Source of the DNA: Candidatus Amesbacteria bacterium GW2011_GWC2_45_19
GTDB taxonomy: Bacteria; Patescibacteriota; Microgenomatia; CAZETR01; Amesbacteraceae
Direction of reading: 5' to 3'
NCBI GenBank assembly: GCA_001001555.1
Contig: LCKS01000004.1
Location: 36,130-100,129, forward strand
DNA: 64,000 bases
In this document: positions 5,959 through 49,962 of the stretch, in pieces
How the letters are laid out: every line of letters begins with the position of its first letter
Position numbering within the stretch: the stretch's first letter is position 1
The notes under the pieces: generated by a model
Databases searched by the model: none
What the model saw: the letters and a program-made list of their open reading frames with translations, nothing else
What the model was told of the DNA's origin: nothing
Position numbers and translations under genes: made by a program

Positions 5959-8021
5959 TATTTTAGAGAACGGACGGAGACGGTAATGTGCTTAGAAACG
6001 CGAGGTAGGGTGGCCAGAAAAGCGGGCAGCCGGGGAGAAATTAGAATGTTTATTTGGCCAATGGCGGGTAAGGATTGGAGATATTCTTTAGCCCAGCCCG
6101 GATATTTGCCAGCTATGTCTTTGGCAATTTTTGCAGTATCCATTTGCGGCAGAAGCAAAGCGGCTACCCGGACTTGAAAAGTGGCGGTGTTTTTGTCGGC
6201 TTTTTTGACAGTCATGCTCTGGGTGACGTCGGTATCAAAAACGTAGCCGGCGGGTATTTGGGGATTGACCTGGGCGTCAATGATGGACTGCAGGTCAGAC
6301 TTAGAAACTACCAAGCCGCGGGCGGTGGCCGAAAGTTTAAGAGAAACGTTGTCTGCCTCTTCGTCGATCTTGTAATTAAAGTTTTCGGAGACCGACTGGA
6401 GACTGATAGATTCGGCAATAAGCTGCATGTCTGAACTGACTTTTTGAGACAGCTCGTCCTTGGCCTTATTTTTCAGAGTTTCAGTCAAGTCGGCCCGGAG
6501 TTTGGCGGCATCATCTTTGGAGACCACTTTGGCCTGCCGGCTGGTACCTCCCGAAAGGGCCGCATCGTTTTTTGCGGAGGTTTCTACAGAGGAGTAACTT
6601 CCTATACGAAAGTCTGTTCCAGCAGAAAGATTATAGTCTCCGCCAATTTGTCCGGCGGTAACTTTGGCAGTCACTTTTCCTGATTGAACGTTCGGGGCAT
6701 ATCCGCTAGCAGAGGCAACGGTGGCAATTTCATCTAAAACGAATTTCAGTCCGGATGGAGAAATTAAAATTGTCCCTGCAGTAAAAGTGCGACTGGCGGC
6801 AGCATTGTTGGTGATAACTACCGAACCCGTGGCTTTGTCGCCGACAATTTTGGAGCCAGTGGCGGGAATGGATTTGTCTGCAGAAACCGCTTCCTCCAAG
6901 CTTTCTGCCGGCAGGTCTTTGCCGCCGGCCACAAGTTCAAATTGATGCTCCAGATTCTTGGGGGTGACAAACAAAACAACTTCGGCTTTGGGTAAGTACC
7001 AGTAAGCTGCTCCTAATCCGCCGACGACAGCAAGAAATATTAACACGGAAATGATAGCTACTGCAGAAAAATTGAGGTGAATTTTTGGCAAGTGAATCGT
7101 GGGGAGTTTAAATTTGGGTTTGGGTGGCACAACCACCGGAACAGGTTCCGGTTCCGGAGGCGGCGGAAGCGGAGATTGAGCGGCCACATCTATATCTTGG
7201 ACAAACCCCAGGTCAGAGGCAGAGTGAGCCGGTTGGGATTCAGTGGTAGGTTCTTCTTCAGCCCGAGCGACTTCTGATCCTCCAGAGAGGGCAATGGCCC
7301 GGATGGTGAAATCGGCCGGCAAAATTTCTACCTTGGGAAAGTGCAGAAAAGGCAGGTGTTTTTGCGGGGCTTGCCAGGGGTGGGCCAAAAGCAATTGTTT
7401 GACTTCCTCCAAGTCTATGCCGGAATCATACAGAAGCATCCGGGAAGGCAGCATGTCAATATCGGAAAAGCGGGACAGACCTTCGACCACATCGTCGGCC
7501 AGGTGGGAACTTTTTTGCACCAGATAGGTACCGTTAATCTTACCTAATCTAACCAAGGTGATTTCCAGACAGTGCGGCCAAAAACCAATGAGAATGGCGG
7601 TGGGGGGGACACCTTCAGTGGACTGGAGATATTTGGCGGCGGCTTCGGGAGTAACTACAAATCCCACCGGCACCAGGTCCAGTTTTTCTGATAAAGCTTT
7701 AAGAAGACGAAGTTGGGAGGGGAAAATTTTGTCTGCCCCTACCCAATCGGCGGGCAGGCCAAAGATAACCTTGTGGACGTCTACTTTGCCGGTGGGGTCC
7801 AGGTGGGAAGTGGCGTCGGAAAGAGTGGCGTCCGCAATTGTGATAAGTGAGTCTTCGGCTTTGTCATCCCACGATTGGCTACTACTGACGGCTAAAACTT
7901 GGGGCTTGTCATTGATAACTGACCAAACAGCGCTTTTGATTAAACCGTGGTCGATCTCCAAAGCGAAAAAATATTCCCGGGCAGGGGTTTTTTCGGGTTT
8001 TTTAAGAAACGGCAGTTGCAT
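5958..8021 (-). CDS. membrane protein with N-terminal cytoplasmic actin-like (FtsA/PilM-like) domain, Pro-rich linker, TM, large extracytoplasmic C-terminal domain (possible PilM-PilN-like fusion)
   Basis: FALEIDHGLIKSAVWSV and ILIGFWPHCLEITLV resemble PilM/FtsA phosphate motifs; PPPPEPEPVPVVVPPKPK linker; TM AVAIISVLIFLAVVGGLGAAYWYL preceded by an IHLP/IHLNF stretch (PilN-like INLLP?). Confidence 0.4.
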   Translation of the reverse strand: MQLPFLKKPEKTPAREYFFALEIDHGLIKSAVWSVINDKPQVLAVSSSQSWDDKAEDSLITIADATLSDATSHLDPTGKVDVHKVIFGLPADWVGADKIFPSQLRLLKALSEKLDLVPVGFVVTPEAAAKYLQSTEGVPPTAILIGFWPHCLEITLVRLGKINGTYLVQKSSHLADDVVEGLSRFSDIDMLPSRMLLYDSGIDLEEVKQLLLAHPWQAPQKHLPFLHFPKVEILPADFTIRAIALSGGSEVARAEEEPTTESQPAHSASDLGFVQDIDVAAQSPLPPPPEPEPVPVVVPPKPKFKLPTIHLPKIHLNFSAVAIISVLIFLAVVGGLGAAYWYLPKAEVVLFVTPKNLEHQFELVAGGKDLPAESLEEAVSADKSIPATGSKIVGDKATGSVVITNNAAASRTFTAGTILISPSGLKFVLDEIATVASASGYAPNVQSGKVTAKVTAGQIGGDYNLSAGTDFRIGSYSSVETSAKNDAALSGGTSRQAKVVSKDDAAKLRADLTETLKNKAKDELSQKVSSDMQLIAESISLQSVSENFNYKIDEEADNVSLKLSATARGLVVSKSDLQSIIDAQVNPQIPAGYVFDTDVTQSMTVKKADKNTATFQVRVAALLLPQMDTAKIAKDIAGKYPGWAKEYLQSLPAIGQINILISPRLPAFLATLPRVSKHITVSVRSLK

Positions 8022-17564: not shown

Positions 17565-17586
17565 CTCTCAATAACTCCCTCTCATT

Positions 17587-17610
17587 CTCCCTCTTAATCT
17601 AAGAGGGAGA
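17587..17610. repeat. palindromic hairpin TCTCCCTCTTA-atc-TAAGAGGGAGA overlapping the last codons and stop of the phosphoesterase gene (related to the CCCCCTCCTAA hairpin family)
   Basis: Perfect 10-bp stem; the minus strand reads ...SLLD* through it. Confidence 0.5.
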
Positions 17611-18100
17611 CGCTAGTATAACTGCTAGATAAGGTGTCATAAATTCCAAAAGATGCGGGAGCTAGTTTGCCGGAAATGATGCCGCAGATGGAGCCGGGGT
17701 TGGCAAGCAAAGTTTTGCCTACTTGCTCTTGATAGGCTTTGTGGGTGTGACCGTGGAAAACCGCGTCATAATCTCCCGTTCCGGCCAAAAGTTTGCCGAG
17801 TTTGGGATAATGACAGAAGGCGATTTTTTTACTTTCCAATTCTACTTCGGCAAATTCTTTGGTTAGAGGCCAAAGCTGGACAGCTTTTAATTTTTCGGAA
17901 ATGGCAAATTGATCCTCATCATTATTCCCAAAACAAGCATAAATTGGTAAGGCTGATTCGGCTAAAATTACAGCCGTAAATGGAGCGCAAAAGTCTCCGC
18001 AAAAAATTATGACCTCGCATTTTTGCTCTTTGATTATTTGAATCGCCTTCCGCAGGTTCCAAATATGATCGTGGGTATCTGATAAAACTGCTATTTTCAT
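17594..18100 (-). CDS. metallophosphoesterase (YfcE/MJ0936 family)
   Basis: MKIAVLSDTHD...GDF...GNND...GHTH motif set. Confidence 0.75.
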   Translation of the reverse strand: MKIAVLSDTHDHIWNLRKAIQIIKEQKCEVIIFCGDFCAPFTAVILAESALPIYACFGNNDEDQFAISEKLKAVQLWPLTKEFAEVELESKKIAFCHYPKLGKLLAGTGDYDAVFHGHTHKAYQEQVGKTLLANPGSICGIISGKLAPASFGIYDTLSSSYTSVSLLD

Positions 18101-18219
18101 TAGTAGGTGGGCAGGAATTGTTTGAGATTGTTTTTCATTTCCACACCCAATGGTCCGTAGTCATAAAAGTCCTGCAAGCCTTCGTTTTTGCACAGGCTGA
18201 CAATTTTTTCCATGAGGTC
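18100..18219 (-). pseudogene. remnant of lon-like gene 3' end. The last 28 nt are nearly identical to 19100..19127.
   Basis: Minus-strand [43 protein letters not shown] ends NLKQFLPTY*, identical to the C-terminus of ORF 19096..20076. Its TAA overlaps the ATG of the phosphoesterase gene. Confidence 0.5.
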
Positions 18220-18383
18220 CATGTGTTTAGTTTACAACAAAAAGCTCTTCTTTCCAATTCCGACTCGATTTGTCGTTTGGCGCGGCCGCGACTAACGGCA
18301 AAATTGACGGGTACTGACAAATAGTTTGTGGGGATAAAATACTTCAGTAGTTTTCTCCAACTCAATTTTCTTTTCATCGGTAG

Positions 18384-18803
18384 TCATCGTAAGGGGTTGA
18401 TTACTTTAATATCTTTCATAGGATAGTGCTTGATGTTCATGGTCAAAAGAGTCAGTTTGTGAATTTTGCAAGTTGCGGCGATTAAATAATCTATTAAGTT
18501 AATATTAACGTTTCGATACTTATTCCAATACTCTCCTGCCAGTTTTGCTATCGCGAAGTTTATGGGGACCTGGTTATGCCACTTGAAAAAGTGTCTGTTC
18601 GAGGCCTCTTCTTCGGGAAAAGAATTTTTGTAAATTTCGCCAACCGTTAAGATAGAGATAGCTACGAACTGATCATCCACTATTTTTGAAACTGCTTCAA
18701 TTGCCCTTTCATTCCCCCTGATTATCCAAATTGAGACATCTGAATCAAGTAAAAATCTATCTTTCCTTTTTGGGCTTGGCATAGGGAATATATGAATAAT
18801 CAC
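18384..18803 (-). CDS. PIN-domain toxin (VapC-like)
   Basis: FLLDSDVSIWIIRG N-terminus and DYLIAATCKIHKLTLLTMNIKHY C-terminus; AT-rich. Confidence 0.7.
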   Translation of the reverse strand: MIIHIFPMPSPKRKDRFLLDSDVSIWIIRGNERAIEAVSKIVDDQFVAISILTVGEIYKNSFPEEEASNRHFFKWHNQVPINFAIAKLAGEYWNKYRNVNINLIDYLIAATCKIHKLTLLTMNIKHYPMKDIKVINPLR

Positions 18804-19068
18804 GGTTAGTTGCGGCCCGGCCTTCGTTTACCCAGTTTACAATGTTTTCCATGTTTTCCCATCCAGGCCGGCTTCTTACGCCCAACACACCGGTAAACTT
18901 TCTCAACGCATCCGCATAAGAAACTTTTCTCTTTCTCAATTTCAACTGCTTGCCAACCGCCATAGCCACAAAACGGCTTCTTTGCCTAGTGGACACTTGA
19001 TCTTTCAGGTCTGAGTATAAGTCCCAAGGCAACGTAAAATTCACTCTAGTCGTTGTTTGCATATACAC
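18757..19068 (-). CDS. ribbon-helix-helix (CopG-like) antitoxin
   Basis: TRVNFTLPWDLYSDLKDQVSTRQRSRFVAMAV RHH pattern; overlaps the PIN gene. Confidence 0.6.
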   Translation of the reverse strand: MYMQTTTRVNFTLPWDLYSDLKDQVSTRQRSRFVAMAVGKQLKLRKRKVSYADALRKFTGVLGVRSRPGWENMENIVNWVNEGRAATNRDYSYIPYAKPKKER

Positions 19069-19095
19069 ACTTTATATCACCATTATACACACTTG

Positions 19096-20076
19096 TCAAT
19101 AGGTGGGTAGGAATTGTTTGAGGTTGTCGGCGGTAATATAAAATTGGTTGCCTTTGCCTTCGACTATGAGTTTGGCGGTTTTGCGGACGATGCCCTGGAT
19201 AGTGCGCTCCAGAGTGCGGATACCGGCGTCAAAGCCTAGGGGGCGGACGATTTGGGGCCAAACGGCGTCGTCGATTTTGAGAGCTGAATCCGGAAGAGAA
19301 GCATTTTTAATCTCGATGGGCAAAACGTAATCGCGGGCGATGGTGATTTTTTCCTCGTCGTTGTAGGAGGGCATAGTCAGAGGCTCGAGCCGGTCCATGA
19401 CGGCAGCAGAAATATTGGTAGTGTTGTTACAAGTGGCAATAAACAGAACCTGGGAGAGATCGAAAGGATAATCAATGTAATGATCGGTAAAACCGGCATT
19501 TTGTTCCGGGTCGAGAAGCTCGACCAATACACCCATGATTTCAGAGCGGGCGGAATCGGCCACCCGGTCGATTTCGTCCAGTAAAATTACCGGGTTTTTG
19601 GTTTGGGCCCGGCGCAGATTTTTGATGATTTGGCCCGGCTCGGCGTCGGGGTAAACCCGGGACTGGCCACGCAAGTCTAAGGCCAAGCCCATGCCGCCAA
19701 AGGGAATGCGCACAAATTTTCTGCCCATAGCTTCGGCGATGGATTTGGCCAGAGTGGTTTTGCCGGTACCCACCAGGCCCACCAGCAATAAAATCGGGGC
19801 GTGATAAATGGTGCTTTTTTGCTGATTTAGGATCAGGACTGAGAGATATTCCAGAATGCGTTGTTTTAAATCTTCCAGGCCGTAGTGGTGCCGGTCGAGA
19901 ATTTGCTTGGCGTGACCCAAGTCTAAAATATCTTTGGTGGTTTTGTCCCAGGGAAGATTAGTAATCCAATCAATATAGTGGGCCGCCTGCTCGGGATTGG
20001 TGCCCCGAGTCAAAACCTCTTCGGCTTTGGCCCGCAGGTCATCCGGCAGCGTGGCAGTCTTTAACTTGTCATCCAT
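19096..20076 (-). CDS. Lon-like AAA+ ATPase module (no N-domain, no S16 protease domain)
   Basis: Residue-level match to the Lon AAA+ region: HYGLEDLKQRILEYL, GTGKTTLAKSIAEAMGRKFVRI, ILLDEIDRV, LDPEQNAGFTDHY, ATCNNTTNI, DRLEPL. It ends ([10 protein letters not shown]) exactly where canonical Lon continues into the protease domain. Confidence 0.75.
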   Translation of the reverse strand: MDDKLKTATLPDDLRAKAEEVLTRGTNPEQAAHYIDWITNLPWDKTTKDILDLGHAKQILDRHHYGLEDLKQRILEYLSVLILNQQKSTIYHAPILLLVGLVGTGKTTLAKSIAEAMGRKFVRIPFGGMGLALDLRGQSRVYPDAEPGQIIKNLRRAQTKNPVILLDEIDRVADSARSEIMGVLVELLDPEQNAGFTDHYIDYPFDLSQVLFIATCNNTTNISAAVMDRLEPLTMPSYNDEEKITIARDYVLPIEIKNASLPDSALKIDDAVWPQIVRPLGFDAGIRTLERTIQGIVRKTAKLIVEGKGNQFYITADNLKQFLPTY

Positions 20077-20091
20077 TGGTTCTAGTTTACA

Positions 20092-22221
20092 TCAAAAGCG
20101 GCGGCGGGTGTCGCGGCGCATGGGGGCACGGAAGCGGTTGTCGGGGCGCCCGCCTTCGCTAAAGCTACGGCGAGGTGAAGGACGGGGCTCACGGGCTTTG
20201 ACTAGAGGCTGGCCGGCCGCGTCGAAAAGCATGGACAGGCTGATACGGTTTTGAGCGTCGATTTCGATGACCCACACCCGGACTTTATCGCCTTCGTGGA
20301 CAATCTGATTGGGATCGGCCACAAAACCCTGGGCCATCTGGGAAACGTGGACCAGGCCGTCCTTGCCGGGCAAAATATTTACAAAAGCGCCAAAAGGCTG
20401 GATGCGGGCCACGGTGCCTTCATAGATTTCTCCGGCTTTGACTTCCTGGCCCAAGGATGCAATCCAACTAATAGCGCCGTTTACACCATCCTGGTCGGTA
20501 CCGGAGATAAAAACGGAGCCGTTATCATTGACATCGATTGACACACTGAAGTCGGCCATGAGTTTTTTGATGACTTTGCCGCCCGGACCGATCAGCTCGC
20601 CGATCTTGTCCACGGGAATAGTGACCACATGAATTTTGGGAGCGTACTGGGATAATTCTTTTCTGGGTCCGGGAATAGTCTTGAGCATGGTTTGCAAAAT
20701 CTGCATGCGGGCGGTTCTAGCCCGGGCGAATGTTTGTTCACAAATATCCAAGGTTAATCCGGGAATTTTGACGTCTAATTGAATGGCGGTGATACCTGTT
20801 TCTGTGCCGGCGACTTTAAAATCCATATCGCCGTAGTGATCTTCCCCACCATTAATATCTGTCAACAGCTGGCGGTCAACCAGACCGATAGAAATACCGG
20901 CTACGGGAGCAATGATAGGAACTCCGGCGTCCATCAAGGACAAGGTTGAACCGCAGGTACTGGCCATGGAAGTGGAGCCGTCGGAGGACATGATTTCCGA
21001 AACCACCCGGATGGCGTAGGGAAAATCAGTTTCAGCAGGAATAACCGGGGCCAAGGCCCTTTCAGCCAAAGCTCCGTGACCGATTTCCCGCCGGCCGGGC
21101 GAACCCATGCGGCCGGTTTCTCCGGTGGAAAACGGGGGGAAATTGTAATGGCACATGTAACGTTTGGTGTCTTCTCCTTCGGCCGATTCCAGAGATTGAG
21201 ACAGAGAGGGGGCGCCGAGAGTTGTGACGGTTAGGACTTGTGTTTCTCCTCTTTGAAAAATGGCAGAGCCGTGAACCCGGGGCAAAACTCCAACTTCGGC
21301 AGAAAGCGGGCGGATTTCATCCAATTTGCGGCCGTCGGGGCGCTGGCCGGCCAGAATATTTTTGCGGAAAGCGGCAGAAAACAATTCTTCAACTATTTCT
21401 TTGACTTCTGCCTGGTCCTGGGGATCAAAGCTGGAAACGAGAGGTTCTATTTCTGCCTCATCCTGCAAATTTTTGGCGGCTTTGCGAACTTGGGCCACCA
21501 GTTCAGAATTATGATCTTTAGCGGTAACAGAAATTTTGTCCCGGCCAATTTCTTTGACCAAGTTATTGATGAGGGAGATAATTTTTTTGTTTTCGGCAAA
21601 CCCGGTTTTCAAAGCTTCCAGGATAGTAGCTTCCGGGACTTGATTGGCCCCGGCCTCAATCATAGGAATAACAGTTTCGGAACTGGTGACAACCAAGTCC
21701 AAATCCACTCCAGCGCGGTTTCCGTTTTCGGGGTTAATCACCAACTGGCCGTCGACCAATCCCATACGAACTGCGGCCACGGGTCCATTCCAGGGAATTG
21801 GGGAAATAGCCAAAGCGGCCGAGGTGGCAATGAGACCTAAAACGTCGGCATCGTTGGCGGTGTCTACGGAGAGGACGGTAATAATTACCTGGACTTCGTT
21901 TTTAAGCCCTTTGGGGAAAAGAGGGCGGATGGAACGGTCAATGAGCCGAGCTGATAAAACTTCGGCGTCGGTAGGGCGGCCTTCGCGTTTAACCCAACGC
22001 GAACCTTTGATGCGGCCGCCGGCATATAAACGCTCTTGGTACTCGACAGATAAAGGAAAATAATCTTTTTTCAGGTCTTCTTTACCCAGAACGACAGTGG
22101 CCAAAAGCGAAGTGTCCCCATAACGGGCAAAAACGGCGCTGGTGGCACGAGAAGCGAACCGACCAACCTCTAAGGTTAAAGTACGTCCGGCTAGTTCTAA
22201 AGTTTTACTGACTAATTTCAT
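20092..22221 (-). CDS. pnp: polynucleotide phosphorylase
   Basis: two RNase PH domains, KH and S1 domains; 709 aa. Confidence 0.9.
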
Positions 22222-22487
22222 TTGGATAAACCCAATTTCTTAGACAGGTCATTATATCTTTTAATGTCCTTCTTTTGTAAGTAGAATAATAGTCGGCGGC
22301 GCTTGTTGACCATAGATAGCAGGCCCCGGCGGGAATGTTCGTCCTTTTTATGGGCTTGCAAATGTTCGACCAATTTGGTGATCTTTTCGCTCAGCAGGGC
22401 CGCCTGAACTTCGGGAGAACCGGTGTCTCCTTTGCCTTGGGCAAATTTCTTGATGACGTCTTCTTTTGATTTAGGGTCTAAAGCCAT
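22218..22487 (-). CDS. rpsO: 30S ribosomal protein S15
   Basis: [24 protein letters not shown]; 89 aa. Confidence 0.9.
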
Positions 22488-22671
22488 AATAAACGTAAGA
22501 GGTAGGGCGAGAGTGAGTCCGCTTAGCGGACAAACCCCCGTTAATGTCTCTTACTGCCGGTATTATAACACAAAAATGGGTTCTAAAACCAATTTGGGCT
22601 ATTATTCGCATCAAATTATCCTCTTACAAATCCCCACGGCCGTCAAAATTTGTAAGAAACTTGTCCAAAAT

Positions 22672-23421
22672 TTAGGAAACGGTGGTGCCGGAAAAGACTT
22701 TGGGGGTGTACCAATCGGGAGACGGGTTAGTTGGTTCTTGGTTATTGGTTATCTGCGAGTTACTTGGTTCTGGAGTGAAGCCGTCGTGGCGGCGGGCACC
22801 CTGGCGCATAAGAACTGCGGCGATTTCAAAAGTATCGGCCGTGACATTAGCCGTAAAATTGGAGGTAGATTTTTCCAGTCCGGCTAAGAGATTAGAGGCG
22901 GCATCATTAGAAATAGGGAGCTTGAGAGTTTCGAGAAGGCGGGTGACTTCCTCGGATCCAGCCAGAGAAAAGTGTTTGGTTTGAGCAAAAACTTCCGGAA
23001 CTTCCGCTCCGGCCACCAGAATGATCAGATCGGCCTGGGCGCCGCCAGAGATGAAATTTAATTTGCGGTGGTCAAGACCGGGGGTGTTGGGTTTGGGAGT
23101 GATAACTAAATTCAGCTCCCCCCTATCATCTAAATGATAACTGACTTTATCCACAATTTCCGTCTGGCCGGGAAAGGTGATCACCAGGTTGCGGCTGCCA
23201 AAGTTAGAAATGACCGTATCTGCTCCCACTAAGCGGTGAAATTCCACGGTCATGGGATCGGCACAGGTCACAGAGGCGGGTTTGCCGAACTGATCCAGGG
23301 AGAGTTTGAGAGCCAGGGCGGCGGCCACGGCATCATAGCCAGGGTTTTGGGGAAGAAGAATGGCTACCGAACGGGCAGAATCCAGCAGGCCCTTAAATTG
23401 ATTGGTATCAACTGGCGCCAT
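22672..23421 (-). CDS. DHH-family (NrnA-like) domain protein with degenerate catalytic motifs
   Basis: Occupies the nrnA-like slot between infB and rpsO; AILLPQNPGYDAVAAALAL resembles DHH motif I but lacks the Asp residues and the DHH triad. Confidence 0.35.
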   Translation of the reverse strand: MAPVDTNQFKGLLDSARSVAILLPQNPGYDAVAAALALKLSLDQFGKPASVTCADPMTVEFHRLVGADTVISNFGSRNLVITFPGQTEIVDKVSYHLDDRGELNLVITPKPNTPGLDHRKLNFISGGAQADLIILVAGAEVPEVFAQTKHFSLAGSEEVTRLLETLKLPISNDAASNLLAGLEKSTSNFTANVTADTFEIAAVLMRQGARRHDGFTPEPSNSQITNNQEPTNPSPDWYTPKVFSGTTVS

Positions 23422-24796
23422 GGATAGTGACGGCTATTATAATATCACCGGTCTTGAAGTCAACTGGCGGAGAAAAAACGGCCCCGAATTCCTGGCCGGT
23501 TTTAATTTTTTCAACTTCGGCTTTGCCAATTTTAAGAGATTTTATTTTGGTAATTTTGTCACCGATTTTGATCGAGTTGGTTTTGAGTATTTCTCCTTCG
23601 GTGCATTTACCCCCGGCCACCCGTAGATTGTCTATTTTGAACCCGGCCAGAATCTGGGCCCGGCCGGTAATGGTTTCGGTCTCTTGAGGATGGACTAATT
23701 TTTCTATGGCATCTAAAAGCTCATAAATAACATTAAAAGAGTGGATTTTAACTTTGTCTATTTCGGCTAGTTTGGCGGTGGAGCCGGGAATTTTGACATT
23801 AAAAGCAATTATTTGAGAATTTGTGGAAGTGGCAAAAAGAATGTCAGATTCGGTAACTTCGCCAGTAGCTGACGAAATTAGATTGACTTCCGGGGGTAAC
23901 AAAGAAGTAATGGCCTCAAGAGAACCGAGAGTGTCGGCTTTGAGGATAATTTTGACTATATCACCCTCTCCCTTCGGCCTGCCTGCCGGCAAGGCAGGGT
24001 TTCCCCCTCTTAAATTAAGAGGGGGAACGAAAGGGGGTGATATTTTAGTGATAGCAGAACTTAGTACAGACCCTACAGGGACGACGGAAGTGAGGCCGAG
24101 AATTTCGACGGGGGTAGAAGGCAGAGCAGGATTGACAGACAGGGCCTTGGCTTTACCGACCAATTTGTCTGAAAATAGCTCCTGGCCAACTTTTAAAGTA
24201 CCGTTTTTGACGATGCACATAGCCAAAGGGCCGCGGCGGGTATCCAAGTGAGATTCAAGAACAATACACTCTAGAGAGCCGGAAGGGTCGGAGACTGGAG
24301 GTTGGAGGCTAGAAACTAGATGGACCATCTCCAAAAGTTCAGGCAAGCCCTGGCCGGTTTTGGCAGAAACGGGAATGGCAGGTACGTCACCTCCAAACCC
24401 TTCGACTAAAACTGCGTTTTCAACCAATTGGGATTTGACGGTGTCTGCGGAGGCCCCGGGAAGGTCCATTTTATTAATAGCCACAATCATGGGAATACCG
24501 GCTGATTTAATGGTGGCTATAGATTCTTTGGTCTGGGGCATGACCCCGTCTACGGCGGAAATTACCAAAATAGCAATGTCGGCAATATCAGCTCCCCGGC
24601 TGCGCATTTGAGAAAAAGCAGCGTGTCCCGGCGTGTCGATGAAAGTGATACCGTTCGTCTGGAAAGCGTGAGTGCTTTGGGTTATACCCCCGACTTCACG
24701 AGAGGCGATGTTGGTTTTACACAGAGCATCAAGAAGAAAAGTTTTGCCATGATCTACATGGCCCAAAATGACAACGATAGGTGGTCTGGTTTGCAT
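23408..24796 (-). CDS. infB: translation initiation factor IF-2 (short form starting at the G domain)
   Basis: [28 protein letters not shown] GTPase motifs; 462 aa. Confidence 0.85.
   Translation of the reverse strand: MQTRPPIVVILGHVDHGKTFLLDALCKTNIASREVGGITQSTHAFQTNGITFIDTPGHAAFSQMRSRGADIADIAILVISAVDGVMPQTKESIATIKSAGIPMIVAINKMDLPGASADTVKSQLVENAVLVEGFGGDVPAIPVSAKTGQGLPELLEMVHLVSSLQPPVSDPSGSLECIVLESHLDTRRGPLAMCIVKNGTLKVGQELFSDKLVGKAKALSVNPALPSTPVEILGLTSVVPVGSVLSSAITKISPPFVPPLNLRGGNPALPAGRPKGEGDIVKIILKADTLGSLEAITSLLPPEVNLISSATGEVTESDILFATSTNSQIIAFNVKIPGSTAKLAEIDKVKIHSFNVIYELLDAIEKLVHPQETETITGRAQILAGFKIDNLRVAGGKCTEGEILKTNSIKIGDKITKIKSLKIGKAEVEKIKTGQEFGAVFSPPVDFKTGDIIIAVTIHGAS
23939..24022. mobile_element. 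RPE-like nested palindromic element (TIR TATCACCC/GGGTGATA; inner hairpin CCCCCTCTTAA-tt-TAAGAGGGGG plus CCTGCC-GGCAA-GGCAGG) inserted in-frame within infB
   Basis: About 84 bp (28 codons). Translated within IF2 as ...VPPLNLRGGNPALPAGRPKGEGDIV. A homologous element lies in grpE. Confidence 0.55.
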
Positions 24797-24797
24797 C

Positions 24798-25769
24798 TCA
24801 TTTTTCGCTCTTGATATCGATGTGATAGCCGGTGAGCTTGCCGGCTAGTTTGGCGTTTTGACCCTCGCGGCCGATAGCCAGAGACAGTTGATCGGCGGGG
24901 GCAGTAACAACGGCCTCAGCTTTTTTGGCATTGGCTTTGACGATCAGGCCGGTGGCGGGAGACAGGGCGGAGGCGATAAATTTCTCCGTCTCTTCACTAA
25001 ACTGAACTATATCTATTTTTTCTCCGTTGAGCTCACCGATAACAGCCTGAACCCGGACGCCTTTTTGGCCTACACAGGAGCCGACCGGATCTACCCCAGA
25101 TTGGTGGGAGTAGACGGCAATTTTGGTCCGGGATCCGGGGTCGCGGGCAATGACTTTAATCTCGACAGCACCGGAGTTGACCTCGGGAACTTCTCTTTTG
25201 AACAATTCCTTGATCAGACCGGTGTTGGCCCGGGAAACGATCACTTCGCGGCCACGTAAGGAGTCGCGGATACTGTCCAGATAAAAAGTCAGGCGTTGGT
25301 TGATGTGATAGTCCTCGGAATAGACCTGTTCGGCGGGAGGCATGACGGCCTCGGCCTTGCCGATATCCACAATGATTTCGTTGCCGATGAAGCGCAGAAT
25401 CATGCCGTTGACCAGTGTGCCTAAGCGTTTTTCATATTCGGTGACGGTGGCGGATTTTTCGGCCTCGCGGATTTTCTGCATGATAACTTGCTTGGCAGTT
25501 TGGGCGGCGATGCGGCCAAACCCCGGAGGAGTGATATCCAATCTTTTTTTACCCTTGAGAACAAATACCCGGTGGTCGCCTGTTTGAGAATCGAGGTCCG
25601 AATCGTATGTTTTAGTCTCGTCGTATTGGTCGGGATGGTCTTTTTTAAAGGCGGCGACAATGGCTTGCTTAATAGTGTCCAGGACGACTTGAGGATCCAG
25701 ATTGCGCTCATGCGCCACCTGATTTAAGGCGGAGGCAAATTCGGTTCTGGCTTGCAAAACTTTGGCCAT
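24798..25769 (-). CDS. nusA: transcription termination/antitermination factor NusA (short, no AR repeats)
   Basis: N-terminal domain, S1, KH1/KH2; 323 aa. Confidence 0.85.
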   Translation of the reverse strand: MAKVLQARTEFASALNQVAHERNLDPQVVLDTIKQAIVAAFKKDHPDQYDETKTYDSDLDSQTGDHRVFVLKGKKRLDITPPGFGRIAAQTAKQVIMQKIREAEKSATVTEYEKRLGTLVNGMILRFIGNEIIVDIGKAEAVMPPAEQVYSEDYHINQRLTFYLDSIRDSLRGREVIVSRANTGLIKELFKREVPEVNSGAVEIKVIARDPGSRTKIAVYSHQSGVDPVGSCVGQKGVRVQAVIGELNGEKIDIVQFSEETEKFIASALSPATGLIVKANAKKAEAVVTAPADQLSLAIGREGQNAKLAGKLTGYHIDIKSEK

Positions 25770-25801
25770 ACAGTGGCCAATTTTATCAGAAGCTGAGGCG
25801 T

Positions 25802-25841
25802 TATACCACCCCCACCCTCCCCCTCCTAATCTAGGAGGGGG
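25802..25841. repeat. left inverted repeat TATACCACCCCCACCCTCCCCCTCCTAATCTAGGAGGGGG (contains hairpin CCCCCTCCTAA-tc-TAGGAGGGGG)
   Basis: Inverted partner at 27011..27048; the hairpin overlaps the DUF559 stop (..LTPS*). Confidence 0.6.
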
Positions 25842-26190
25842 TAAGTTCCTTTCTAATCTGGTCCACTACTTTGTCTAAATTGGACTGAACTTCCCAATTC
25901 CAAAATCTAATAACTTTGATGTTAAAAGCCCCTAGATATCTGGTTCTATACGAATCATATTTATAATTTTGCTTGTGTTGCTCGCCATCGAGTTCTATGG
26001 CAAGTTTTTTCTCCGGACAGTAAAAGTCCAAAATATAAAATGTTACACTGTGCTGTCGGCGAAACTTAAAGCCGAGGCGGCTATTTTTCAACTTGCTCCA
26101 AAGCAACCTTTCTTCTCTAGTGCCATAGTTTCTTGACCTCCTTCGTTTTTGTTTGAGTTTAGGAGTATTAAAAATAAATTCTTTTCTCAT
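25831..26190 (-). CDS. DUF559 (Vsr/restriction-endonuclease-like fold) domain protein
   Basis: YILDFYCPEKKLAIELDGEQH core motif; AT-rich. Confidence 0.7.
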   Translation of the reverse strand: MRKEFIFNTPKLKQKRRRSRNYGTREERLLWSKLKNSRLGFKFRRQHSVTFYILDFYCPEKKLAIELDGEQHKQNYKYDSYRTRYLGAFNIKVIRFWNWEVQSNLDKVVDQIRKELTPS

Positions 26191-26260
26191 AAAACTGTAG
26201 TTTTATTTCCTTAATCTTACCAGTGCGCGCCTTTTGTGTTCAGGGTGTTAATATGATCGC

Positions 26261-27022
26261 ATGGTCAGTCGTTTGTATTCCGCTATATATTTATTGGAAA
26301 AATTATCTAATTTGGGGGCCATGAAGGTTAATATGCAGTATTTAACGAAAGGTGGCCCGGAATTAAATCACTTTATCGATCGTCAGGCACACCCTGCTAG
26401 AAATGAATATCTTGATATATGCAACCTTAAAAGATTTGTTGAGAGTGGCGAATATGTGATCTCAAATAAATATGTATGTATTTCGACTACATTTGAAACT
26501 TCCGATGTCAAATATAAGGCTTTTATTGGTCTTGATGTGGAGATCGGCGATGAGAAAGTAGTGTTTAATGTTGCCAAGTTTCTCGCACATAAATTAGGTA
26601 AATCGATTGATGTATTTAAAACAACGCGCGGTTTCCACTTTTTTATTCCTGATTTGGTATTTTCTGGTGATTTTGAGTACTTAACGAAAATATTTGAAAT
26701 TGCGAACGATGCTTCTTTGCGGATTGGAGACAAGTGGGTCGCAGGATATTTTGACTGTGTAAAAAAAGCAAAAACTTATAAAGATTTACAACAAATTTCG
26801 CGAGAAATATTAAACAATTTCGGACACTATCAAGCCAGAGGAAAATACACCTTCTTTGACTTAAGACATATCGCTCATGGCATGTTCGAATATGAACGTC
26901 AGCGGGGTATTTCTGATCAGAATAATGGTGTTAGAACACAATTGTTTTTTAGAATAACATCCAAGAACCACAACGATCATCCTCCGGTGTTTATAAAACA
27001 GTTTATTTATTCCCCCTCCTAA
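26261..27022 (+). CDS. hypothetical protein, possible archaeo-eukaryotic primase-polymerase (PrimPol/AEP) domain
   Basis: IGLDVEIGDE (motif I DxE), then about 28 aa later TTRGFHFFIP (motif II sxGxH), then an acidic motif III candidate; AT-rich; start may be an internal Met. Confidence 0.35.
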   Translation: MVSRLYSAIYLLEKLSNLGAMKVNMQYLTKGGPELNHFIDRQAHPARNEYLDICNLKRFVESGEYVISNKYVCISTTFETSDVKYKAFIGLDVEIGDEKVVFNVAKFLAHKLGKSIDVFKTTRGFHFFIPDLVFSGDFEYLTKIFEIANDASLRIGDKWVAGYFDCVKKAKTYKDLQQISREILNNFGHYQARGKYTFFDLRHIAHGMFEYERQRGISDQNNGVRTQLFFRITSKNHNDHPPVFIKQFIYSPS

Positions 27023-27048
27023 GTTAGGAGGGGGACGAGGGGGTGGTA
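27011..27048. repeat. right inverted repeat (hairpin CCCCCTCCTAA-gtt-AGGAGGGGG, spacer ACGA, then GGGGGTGGTA)
   Basis: Its reverse complement TACCACCCCCTCGTCCCCCTCCTAACTTAGGAGGGGG matches the left repeat at 25802; the hairpin supplies the ...SPS* stop of the 253-aa ORF. Confidence 0.6.
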
Positions 27049-27115
27049 CTAGAGAATGTCTGCTAATTCTTCCAGTAAACGTCTTTGTTCGTGGGAAAGA
27101 TGGGCGGGGAGATCG
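27049..27115 (-). pseudogene. remnant of dnaJ 3' end (diverged duplicate)
   Basis: Minus-strand translation VEHFYIDLPAHLSHEQRRLLEELADIL* versus DnaJ C-terminus DFYIRLIIDFPTHLSHRQKQILEEFERS*. Confidence 0.55.
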
Positions 27116-27221
27116 ATGTAGAAATGTTCCACCTAAGAGATGGAACTGCCTAACTATATTAAGCTAGGCGGTCTAATTGTTTATTGACATCTGGTCTTAC
27201 CCTTGTTAACATTAGTTTACA

Positions 27222-29265: not shown

Positions 29266-30096
29266 TTAAGATCTTTCAAACTCTTCCAGTATTTGTTTTT
29301 GGCGGTGGGAGAGGTGGGTGGGGAAATCGATGATGAGACGGATATAGAAATCGCCGCGGTTGGCTACTCCACGGCCGGCCAGGCGAACCATGGTACCGGG
29401 TTGGGTGCCGGGGCGGATTTTAAGCTTTAAGTCCGCGTCTAAGGTAGGGACACTTGTGGTCCCTCCGAGAATAGCCAGGGTGAAAGGAATTTTGTGGTCT
29501 ATATAGATGTCTGCCCCATCGCGGCGGAAAATTAGATCCGGCTCAACTTCAAAAGTAATATCAAAATCGGTAAAACGCAGATGAGTACCGGTATCAGCGC
29601 CGGCGGGAATTTTAATAGCGTGGGTCCGGCCGTCAATGGTGACGCTTTCGGTACCGCCTGAAACTGCCGTTTTAAAAGGAATGCGCAAAGAATAATGAGG
29701 CTTGGCAGGCCGGCTGCGGCCAAAGGGCGAAGCGCCGCCAAAAAATTGTTCAAATATTTCAAAAGGATCGCCCATGTCCCCGAAAGGATTTTGTCCGCCT
29801 CCAGAAGTTGAATAGTAATATTGGAAAGGGCCTTGCTGTTGCCCGGCAAAGCCGGATCCGCCGGAAAAACCACCGGGCGGAGTGTGGCCGAATTGGTCAT
29901 AAGTTTGCTTCTTTTGAGAGTCGGAAAGAACTTGATAAGCCTCGTTTATTTCTTTGAACTTCTCTTCGGCTTCGGGAGACTTATTTTTGTCCGGGTGCCA
30001 CTGCATGGCCATTTTGCGGTAGGCAGATTTGATCTGGGCATCGGAAGCGCCTTTAGAAACACCTAAAATATCATAATAATCACGCTTAGCGGCCAT
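29266..30096 (-). CDS. dnaJ: DnaJ-like co-chaperone (J domain + G/F region + C-terminal domain, no zinc finger)
   Basis: DYYDILGV...HPDKN J domain with HPD; 276 aa. Confidence 0.8.
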   Translation of the reverse strand: MAAKRDYYDILGVSKGASDAQIKSAYRKMAMQWHPDKNKSPEAEEKFKEINEAYQVLSDSQKKQTYDQFGHTPPGGFSGGSGFAGQQQGPFQYYYSTSGGGQNPFGDMGDPFEIFEQFFGGASPFGRSRPAKPHYSLRIPFKTAVSGGTESVTIDGRTHAIKIPAGADTGTHLRFTDFDITFEVEPDLIFRRDGADIYIDHKIPFTLAILGGTTSVPTLDADLKLKIRPGTQPGTMVRLAGRGVANRGDFYIRLIIDFPTHLSHRQKQILEEFERS

Positions 30097-49466: not shown

Positions 49467-49962
49467 ATGCTTTTATTTTAGCGGGTCTAATAACATAATT
49501 GTTAATTTTATAACCTTTAGTGACTATTTCTGCAATAGTATTATCGGGCTCTCCCGGCAAAGTTTCAAGACATTCGTGTATCTCGTGATTATATGAATCG
49601 CCTATTTTGGGAGAAATTTCCTGCAGACCTTCGGCTGTCAAGACGTCTCGAAATTGCTTAACGGCCATTTGCACCCCCTGATCTTGGGAGTGGATGGCGG
49701 CCAACTCCAAAACGTCTAGAGTGGGCAGAAGTTTGGCCATAATATTAGCCGTGGCGTAAGTGACAAAGTCTTTTTTGTCAGCGTCAACACGTTTAACCAG
49801 ATTATGATAATCAGCTAAGGCCCGTTTCCAGTTTTCTGTAAGGGTTTTAACCGTATCACCCTCGGCCTGCGGGCCACCCCCTCTTAAATCGAGCCTTGGG
49901 CTCGCGTCTGACGCCGTAAGAGGGGGATGGGGGGTGATATTGGGTGATTTTTTAGTCTTCAT
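49444..49962 (-). CDS. grpE: nucleotide exchange factor GrpE (N-terminal region carries in-frame palindromic element)
   Basis: [18 protein letters not shown]...; sits between hrcA and dnaK. Confidence 0.8.
49854..49939. mobile_element. RPE-like nested palindromic element (TIR TATCACCC/GGGTGATA, inner hairpin CCCCCTCTTA..TAAGAGGGGG) within grpE coding sequence
   Basis: Translated as ...[27 protein letters not shown]; homologous to the infB copy at 23939. Confidence 0.55.

Follow-up and report, generated by a model that had tools for sequence, protein, structure and literature searches.

Among the described systems that come closest to the repeats reported here, the REP/REPIN palindromes and their RAYT enzymes combine short palindromes present in high copy number with one small nuclease-type gene that is bracketed by the repeats, and one end of the REP palindromes bears a conserved tetranucleotide, GTAG or CGTC (PMC3733652). 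The Rickettsia palindromic elements (RPE) and other in-frame MITEs (miniature transposable elements with inverted repeats), such as ERIC, BOX and the Coxiella QMITE, are found in frame in unrelated housekeeping genes, where they are translated, or they extend the 3' ends of genes (PMC10969869, PMC3184786). In the current study, a 64 kb stretch of a Candidatus Amesbacteria genome from Rifle groundwater, a member of the candidate phyla radiation (CPR), was analysed; this whole stretch is referred to as the window. It contains five copies of one hairpin family, here termed A to E, and one solo arm.

These hairpins belong to a modular palindromic repeat that is widespread across phyla and lies between genes, at gene ends and within genes. 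The family shows genetic coupling to small genes for DUF559 (Vsr / I-Bth0305I-like) endonucleases, which are bracketed by the repeats and may encode the enzyme that mobilises or maintains them. Both the link to DUF559 and the spread across phyla had been missed in an initial annotation of the window. We found no account of the repeat family or of the DUF559-palindrome link in the literature, including the papers and supplements on Geobacter 'multicopy nucleotide sequences', in a survey of incomplete coverage, such that an earlier description is possible.

The repeat family within and beyond the window

The copies and the associated nuclease gene are located as follows, in window coordinates, where arm' and arm denote the two outer sequences.

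17571..17610: copy E, a half unit composed of arm' ATAACTCCCTCTC (17571-17583) and a hairpin
17586-17610: hairpin of copy E, TCTCCCTCTTA-atc-TAAGAGGGAGA, 11-bp stem
23959..24042, minus strand: copy A, a full unit in frame within infB (linker of initiation factor IF-2, ..ISPPFVPPLNLRGGNPALPAGRPKGEGDIV..)
23978-23998: extra module of copy A, a 21-nt mini-hairpin
24001-24027: inner hairpin of copy A, 13-bp stem, with arms TATCACCC / GGGGGTGATA
25804..25841: copy C, composed of arm' TACCACCCCC (25804-13), a spacer and a hairpin (25819-41)
25819-25841: hairpin of copy C, CCCCCTCCTA-atc-TAGGAGGGGG, 10-bp stem, containing the DUF559 stop (..LTPS*)
25831..26190, minus strand: DUF559 (PF04480) endonuclease gene, 119 aa, Pfam E 1.9e-32, the candidate partner enzyme
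27011..27048: copy D, composed of a hairpin (27011-35), the spacer ACGA and arm GGGGGTGGTA (27039-48), the mirror partner of C
27011-27035: hairpin of copy D, TCCCCCTCCTAA-g-TTAGGAGGGGGA, 12-bp stem
49854..49939, minus strand: copy B, a full unit with a long loop, translated in frame near the GrpE N-terminus
49877-49886 / 49917-49926: inner stem of copy B with a 30-nt loop, arms TATCACCC / GGGGGTGATA as in A

A scan of the 64 kb for pyrimidine-run hairpins listed these copies alone. The CCCTCYTAA core occurs eight times in the window against 1.6 expected, a count reached in none of 100 shuffles, and the DNA folding z-scores relative to shuffles were -7.2 (A), -4.9 (B), -3.6 (C), -3.2 (D) and -5.5 (E). 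Copies A and B fold, as DNA, into nested multi-branch structures closed in both cases by the outer arms, which pair as terminal inverted repeats. The initial annotation had reported hairpins at these sites, with outer arms around A and B, to the left of C and to the right of D, and had proposed that full copies, with both arms, and half copies make up a single element family; all of the hairpins lie where it placed them, the arms are as described and the division into full and half copies is supported. An Rfam search of the whole window returned no family reaching the gathering score, and a relaxed threshold yielded a chance-level engA match (E=5) over copy A.

The exact hairpin pattern, with a loop of 1-31 nt, was then sought in contigs from a one-genome-per-species set, an approach that under-samples the diversity of copies and yields loci that are contig fragments and not whole genomes. 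The exact hairpin is present in at least 120 loci of species-representative genomes, bearing out the earlier expectation of copies elsewhere, and these loci span Patescibacteria, Nitrospirota, Geobacter/Desulfuromonadales, Chloroflexota, Vampirovibrionales, Bacteroidota and others. The flanks outside the search pattern are themselves conserved (cATAAC[T/G]CCCCC-nn-hairpin-nn-GGGGG[A/C]GTTATGa), the rarer arm variants ATCACC and ACCACC both also occur in the window, and a sister hairpin, CCTCCCCTTA..TAAGGGGAGG, carries arms of its own. Written out, the unit is a pyrimidine-run hairpin, CCCCCTCYTAA-loop-TTARGAGGGGG, with one or two arms, TA[A/T/C]C-N-CCCCC / GGGGG-N-G[T/A/G]TA. Half units dominate, since perfectly paired outer arms accompany only 21 of 442 hairpins, and compact copies always have the order arm'-hairpin-arm (49 outward pairs versus 0 inward). 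At the variable fourth arm base, AACG often stands opposite AGTT, and inspection by eye gave approximately 6 matched versus 9 mismatched full copies; the arms are therefore not strictly co-selected across the family.

The repeats have ordinary housekeeping genes as neighbours. When 847 flanking open reading frames (ORFs) were clustered all against all, no recurrent integrase or transposase emerged, and neither a Y1 transposase nor a tyrosine recombinase recurs near the 120 listed loci. Hairpins were also found on 39 putative viral contigs from IMG/VR (L219-L257), with arms on 33 of the 47 copies there; these contigs carry genuine armed family members and no DUF559 gene, and one contig (L221) holds four copies in 11 kb. 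The viral copies represent a possible route of spread between phyla, or repeats that invade phages. At L026 (67-90 / 7640-7663), L090 (940 / 4505), L017, L058 and L096, in metagenome-assembled genomes labelled Vampirovibrionales and, in one case, Gammaproteobacteria, the hairpin is followed by a conserved arm of ~45 nt (GGGGGCGGTTAAAC...GTTTAACCTC), and inward-facing pairs lie 3.5-7.5 kb apart; such pairs may mark a larger transposon sharing the ends. A check for strain polymorphism among five near-identical Rifle contigs revealed no indels.

Coupling of the repeats to DUF559 genes

The DUF559 protein of the window matches PDB entry 3hrl with an E-value of 9e-30. Its AlphaFold2 model (pLDDT 90.8) retrieved 3hrl first in a Foldseek search, followed by the catalytic domain of I-Bth0305I (3r3p; E 9e-5, TM 0.73) and, more weakly, by 1vsr, and the TIGR00632 vsr profile gave an E-value of 0.0015, which is below that profile's cut-off. 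On the evidence of this model the protein is predicted to possess the catalytic fold of the Vsr-like EDxHD homing endonuclease class.

Among the 120 matches listed, DUF559 is the sole family found repeatedly next to the hairpins, at distances of 0-94 nt in 5 loci. The converse test, performed on 80 diverse metagenome DUF559 loci with 39-54% identity to the window protein, revealed a hairpin no more than 80 nt upstream of the DUF559 start in 50 of 73 cases and at the 3' end in 53 of 74. Relative to a background of 0.14 hairpins per kb, the flanks of DUF559 (~70% per side) are thus enriched roughly 50-fold. DUF559 genes typically start at the ATG within GGGGGAGTTATG, arm' and hairpin together encode the C-terminal LTPPxLPL, and palindrome-type C-terminal tails were present in 27 of the 72 cluster representatives checked, in a family that comprises 21,544 cluster representatives at E<=0.001. 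In most of the other loci the arms beside DUF559 point inward, and the hairpin variant of copy E is also found upstream of DUF559 genes at two loci (L142 and L148).

The type of repeat varies together with the lineage of the nuclease. Two classes of flank were distinguished, namely CTCCT..AGGAG with GGTGGT arms and CTCTTA/CCCCTTA with G[AC]GTTA arms, and DUF559 protein identity was 55.4% within a flank class versus 45.1% between classes, a gap reached in 0 of 1000 permutations. Between the window and the related locus L135, in which IF-2 is 77% identical, the DUF559 orthologs have a ratio of non-synonymous to synonymous substitution (dN/dS) of 0.036 at a dS of ~1.35, and their nucleotide identity (83.8%) equals, to within half a point, that of nusA (83.4%). 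The gene is therefore functional and vertically inherited, and the repeat borders meanwhile stayed identical. At a further locus, L038 (2700-4210) of a Desulfuromonadaceae metagenome-assembled genome, four tandem units of ~220 bp precede an intact DUF559 gene, each unit beginning with ~90 nt from the 3' end of the upstream gene, continuing with arm'-hairpin2 and hairpin1-arm, and closing with the initial ~50 nt of DUF559; this array looks like the product of repeated aborted copying events.

Copies in frame, at gene ends and between DnaJ and nusA

Six-frame translation revealed that, on both strands, every window hairpin closes two frames (with SPS*/TPS* and PLLx*) and leaves a third open, reading PPLNLRGG or PPPxLGGG. 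Three ORFs of the window therefore stop in hairpins and two copies lie in frame. The DUF559 gene ends ..LTPS* in C and the 253-aa ORF described below ends ..YSPS* in D, while the phosphoesterase ORF ends ..VSLLD* in E, using the second closed frame. The open frame is that used by A, between the EF-G_D2 and IF-2 domains, and by B in GrpE, which exist as in-frame copies because this third frame reads through. The claims of the initial annotation on this point fared unevenly. Its statement that the palindrome supplies stops in either orientation is borne out, and the Pro-Ser-stop ending it described holds for DUF559 and the 253-aa ORF and not for the phosphoesterase; that the element ends an ORF whichever way it inserts applies to two of three frames only. 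The enrichment at gene 3' ends that it called for was observed, as ORFs of at least 100 codons at the other loci end at a hairpin TAA or arm TAA twice as often as at control positions (15% versus 7.5%).

The arm supplies GGAG-TT-ATG, the ATG of which commonly serves as the DUF559 start codon; GTTATG follows 48 of 106 arms, and ORFs of 67 codons or more begin at approximately 13 of those ATGs. On the minus strand at copy E, the phosphoesterase stop in the hairpin is followed by arm GAGAGGGAGTTAT and then by the ATG (17564) of a uracil-DNA glycosylase gene. The palindrome carries TAA/TAG in two frames out of three on each strand; it thus ends ORFs that run into it, and it survives within essential genes in the single open frame only, in the form of PPLNLRGG-like linkers. 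The repeats account for odd low-complexity linkers (PPLNLRGG, GEGDIVK and the LTPPxLPL tails) and for many gene-start and gene-end annotations in metagenome-assembled genomes, and they give rise to gene-calling artefacts, for example ORFs that are fused or extended.

Copies within long open frames account for 19 of 134, the other hosts including one transketolase with two copies and, in Uhrbacteria, MurB and MurC with one each. The GrpE of the window is identical to that of Candidatus Amesbacteria GW2011_GWB1_47_26, and close relatives carry an empty allele (L217, beginning MAAKTTTKTLEENW), an allele with a 66-nt insert (L218) and the 93-nt insert of the window; a clean 27-nt module within the hairpin loop distinguishes the long insert from the short one. 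The IF-2 linker holds a basic element in L132, to which a 21-nt mini-hairpin is added in the window and a 30-nt loop module in L134. At the same site in L135 and L136 another variant is present, in which both arms are changed together (ATCACCC/GGGTGAT to ACCTC.CCC/GGGTGAGGT), and the peptide encoded by these variants is not conserved; the constraint therefore acts on the nucleic acid and not on the protein. The retention of copies in such genes shows that the small genomes of the CPR tolerate, and long retain, selfish or semi-domesticated palindromes in core translation and chaperone genes. In Uhrbacteria (L074, 3641-5314, minus strand), an N-terminal PDDEXK_3 nuclease domain and MurB are joined in a single ORF, with an in-frame hairpin farther downstream. 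Gene calling may have produced this fusion, or a second small nuclease family may be tied to the repeats.

The region between DnaJ and nusA allows copies C and D to be compared among relatives, and the following further features are relevant to it.

26261..27022, plus strand: cargo gene, a 253-aa ORFan whose last codons and stop (..YSPS*) derive from hairpin D
27049..27099, minus strand: leftover DnaJ 3' end (..LSHEQRRLLEELADIL*), abutting the D arm and homologous to the junction of DnaJ-TAG and TACCACCCCC in L135
29256..29264: solo arm GGGGTGATA, within which a 494-aa ORF stops at TGA

In L136 the site is empty, the DnaJ stop being followed directly by the nusA -10 box with no element at the site; in the window this box lies immediately downstream of copy C. 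In L135, the left part reads DnaJ-TAG, TACCACCCCC-TCGT-hairpin and a 2',5' RNA ligase-like gene (reverse), and the right part reads DUF559 (forward), hairpin-ACGA-GGGGGTGGTA and nusA. The window and L135 thus share the borders and the DUF559 gene, the D side being identical to the left border of L135 at 39 of 39 positions and the border of copy C being likewise identical, and they differ in the cargo, a 253-aa ORFan in the former versus the RNA ligase-like gene in the latter. Between the L135 borders, complementarity is complete over 24 nt covering arm, spacer and stem. Such complementarity is expected of one full element into which an insertion came that duplicated the hairpin, and the comparison suggests that C and D are the halves of one element split around DUF559 and a swappable cargo gene, in place of the independent half copies that had initially been proposed, and the leftover DnaJ fragment, judged by its homology to the L135 junction, would mark the ancestral boundary between DnaJ and the element.

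The 253-aa ORF has only three homologs, none of them with hairpins, and all end at the same residue; hairpin D therefore replaced the last codons of this gene. Its AlphaFold2 model (pLDDT 75) bears a weak resemblance to archaeo-eukaryotic primase and LigD polymerase domains (Foldseek E ~3e-3, TM ~0.3). The ORF contains the motifs GLDVEIGDE and TTRGFHFFIPD, and its homologs elsewhere adjoin tRNA genes or an insertion sequence (IS). It was considered as the mobilising enzyme and rejected on account of its three hairpin-free homologs.

The DnaJ 3' end is duplicated in the window, the real DnaJ gene (29266-30096) lying 2.1 kb from the leftover fragment and adjoining the solo arm; two functionally unassigned ORFs, of 201 and 494 aa, lie between both 3' copies. 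The real DnaJ stop lies 2 nt past the solo arm, on the opposite strand, and the stop of the 494-aa ORF within this arm has a parallel in L258 (1125-1145), where a 350-aa ORF stops at the TGA of arm GGAGAGGTGATA. A small conserved hairpin, TTCCA(C/T)CTCTTAGGTGGAA, is found near the DnaJ 3' end both in the window (27120-27140), just upstream of the leftover fragment, and in L259 (2880-2898), where it holds the DnaJ stop.

Proposed mechanism, alternatives and relation to known systems

The data above establish the repeat family, its spread, its effects on reading frames, the empty and filled alleles, the constraint on the nucleic acid and the lineage-specific association with DUF559, whereas an action of DUF559 on the repeats and the manner in which copies move are matters that we infer. 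On balance we lean, by a narrow margin, towards a mechanism in which DUF559 would recognise the hairpin-plus-arm module and nick or cut at or near it, with repair of the break, templated by other copies, spreading and homogenising both the repeats and the nuclease gene, by analogy with REP/RAYT (REPIN) systems and with homing endonuclease genes. Such repair could also carry DUF559 and neighbouring cargo into an element, and between DnaJ and nusA one original full element would have been split, and its hairpin duplicated, by DUF559 and a swappable cargo to give D and C. The mechanism would also explain the exchange of short- and long-loop forms at the same site, the duplicated 3' gene fragments (window 27049-99 and the L038 array) and the presence of different cargo between identical borders.

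Several observations weigh against this mechanism. A DUF559 gene lies within ~4 kb in only 5 of the 120 listed hairpin-selected loci, the covariation of nuclease and flank is explicable by co-inheritance alone, and copies A, B and E of the window belong to a different arm/hairpin class from those beside its DUF559 gene, which itself was inherited vertically with nusA and hence is not visibly mobile on that timescale. Alignment of empty and filled GrpE alleles defines a 66- or 93-nt insertion with no clean direct repeat from which a target-site duplication could be defined. A search of the DnaJ-nusA site for an intact full element lacking DUF559 yielded none; the site was empty or held unrelated inserts or remnants, and upstream of nusA in L259 (2880-2960), right halves only (TAAGAGGGG, TTAGGAGGGGTGATA and GGGGGTGGTA) accompany the same flank as in the window.

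The main rival to nuclease-driven repair is that the repeats serve the host as RNA punctuation, stabilising 3' ends and linking a gene's stop with the start of its downstream neighbour (arm' TAA, hairpin, arm GGAG-TT-ATG), with DUF559 as one of many bracketed small genes or as a housekeeping nuclease that controls palindromes. Copy E, which occupies 30 nt between two co-directional genes and provides the stop of one and the Shine-Dalgarno (SD)-like GAGGGAG of the other, fits such a role, as do the frequency of GTTATG after arms, the conservation of the borders where synonymous sites are saturated and the exclusively outward orientation of compact copies. A normal SD, however, needs more than the 2 nt that separate GGAG from ATG, and punctuation leaves unexplained the in-frame insertions in IF-2, GrpE, transketolase, MurB and MurC, the empty and filled alleles, the near-identical sequences across phyla and viral contigs, and both the ~50-fold enrichment at DUF559 and the covariation with nuclease lineage; we therefore regard it as unlikely. 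Still less probable is a composite transposon, in which C and D would be the terminal inverted repeats of a 1.25-kb unit carrying DUF559 and the archaeo-eukaryotic primase-like 253-aa gene, with A and B as deletion derivatives (MITEs). The near-perfect inverted repeats at the borders, the absence of the whole block from L136 and the weak primase-polymerase-like fold of the 253-aa protein would accord with a transposon, but the left cargo differs between the window and L135 within identical borders, the 253-aa family occurs elsewhere without hairpins, the arms beside DUF559 at other loci face mostly inward and not outward, A and B carry other arm/hairpin variants, and a target-site duplication was not found.

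Integron-type attC sites, with the flanked genes as cassettes, appear very improbable. The attC core consensus is RYYYAAC / GTTRRRY, which the commonest variant of the repeat (..CATAAC / GTTATG..) resembles, and ORFs start and stop in the site as cassettes do. The window variants, however, have CAC/GTG instead of AAC/GTT (ATCAC / GTGAT; ACCAC / GTGGT), half copies dominate, no tyrosine recombinase or other recurrent gene attends the 120 listed loci, and copies are scattered among and within housekeeping genes with no co-oriented arrays; the integron reading was rejected on this context of dispersed and in-gene copies and lack of a recombinase. Chance GC-rich hairpins or ordinary intrinsic terminators have next to no probability, the stable stems at three gene ends notwithstanding. 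The excess of the motif over shuffles and identical sequences in hundreds of loci contradict chance, and the terminator-like stem envisaged in the initial annotation is contradicted by a T-run after only 6 of 117 copies and by a terminator scan that called no window hairpin, such that both forms of this explanation are refuted by the scans.

A broader proposal, which we put forward more tentatively than templated repair itself, is that DUF559 may supply the enzyme for a cross-phylum palindrome system that has so far gone unrecognised, a parallel to REPIN/RAYT built on a Vsr/homing-endonuclease fold, whose portable stop/start/linker repeats would remodel essential CPR proteins (IF-2, GrpE, transketolase and Mur ligases) and reach viral genomes. 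If true, this would provide a testable function for DUF559, a very large nuclease family without an assigned role, and would place a second, mechanistically different system of repeats with a dedicated enzyme beside REP/RAYT.

The parallel with REP/RAYT extends from the short, high-copy palindromes and bracketed nuclease-type gene to the covariation of repeat type with enzyme lineage and to an enzyme gene that is vertically inherited under purifying selection, is flanked by inverted repeats and is far outnumbered by them. The enzyme, however, is a PD-(D/E)XK Vsr-like DUF559 protein in place of the HUH Y1 transposase (Y1_Tnp) of REP/RAYT, and the repeat ends read TAAC / TATC / TACC ... GTTA / GATA / GGTA in place of the GTAG/CGTC tag. 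Unlike REP sequences, the repeats are compound units of a hairpin, arms and optional mini-hairpins that are common within genes and distributed over many phyla.

Like RPEs, they occur as in-frame, translated copies in IF-2, GrpE, transketolase, MurB and MurC. In contrast to the RPEs and other in-frame MITEs, they are shorter (~40-90 nt), not restricted to one genus and linked to a specific nuclease gene, and they exhibit compensatory changes at the nucleic-acid level and modular loop insertions of 21-30 nt. Terminal inverted repeats of the kind expected of a MITE are present in A and B, and in perfectly paired form at few of the hairpins overall; in place of a parent IS with a transposase sharing the ends, DUF559 is the only gene that shares them. 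The co-oriented arrays beside intI that define integrons are absent from the listed loci, and few copies have the U-tract that accompanies the GC-rich hairpin of an intrinsic terminator.

Free-standing homing endonuclease genes of the I-Bth0305I type offer a match in catalytic fold, presence or absence at a conserved locus and duplication of specific flanking sequence. A group I intron encodes I-Bth0305I, however, and that enzyme possesses additional DNA-binding domains, whereas the protein here is a bare 119-aa domain whose putative target is a dispersed palindrome and not a unique gene site. The GC-cluster palindromes of fungal mitochondria are likewise small and GC-rich, spread within the genome and can sit in a coding frame; they differ in being organellar, unrelated in sequence and devoid of a dedicated bracketed nuclease gene. 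The system described here thus works like REP/RAYT and resembles the RPEs in its in-frame copies, and it departs in defining features from REP/RAYT, MITEs, attC sites and intrinsic terminators alike.

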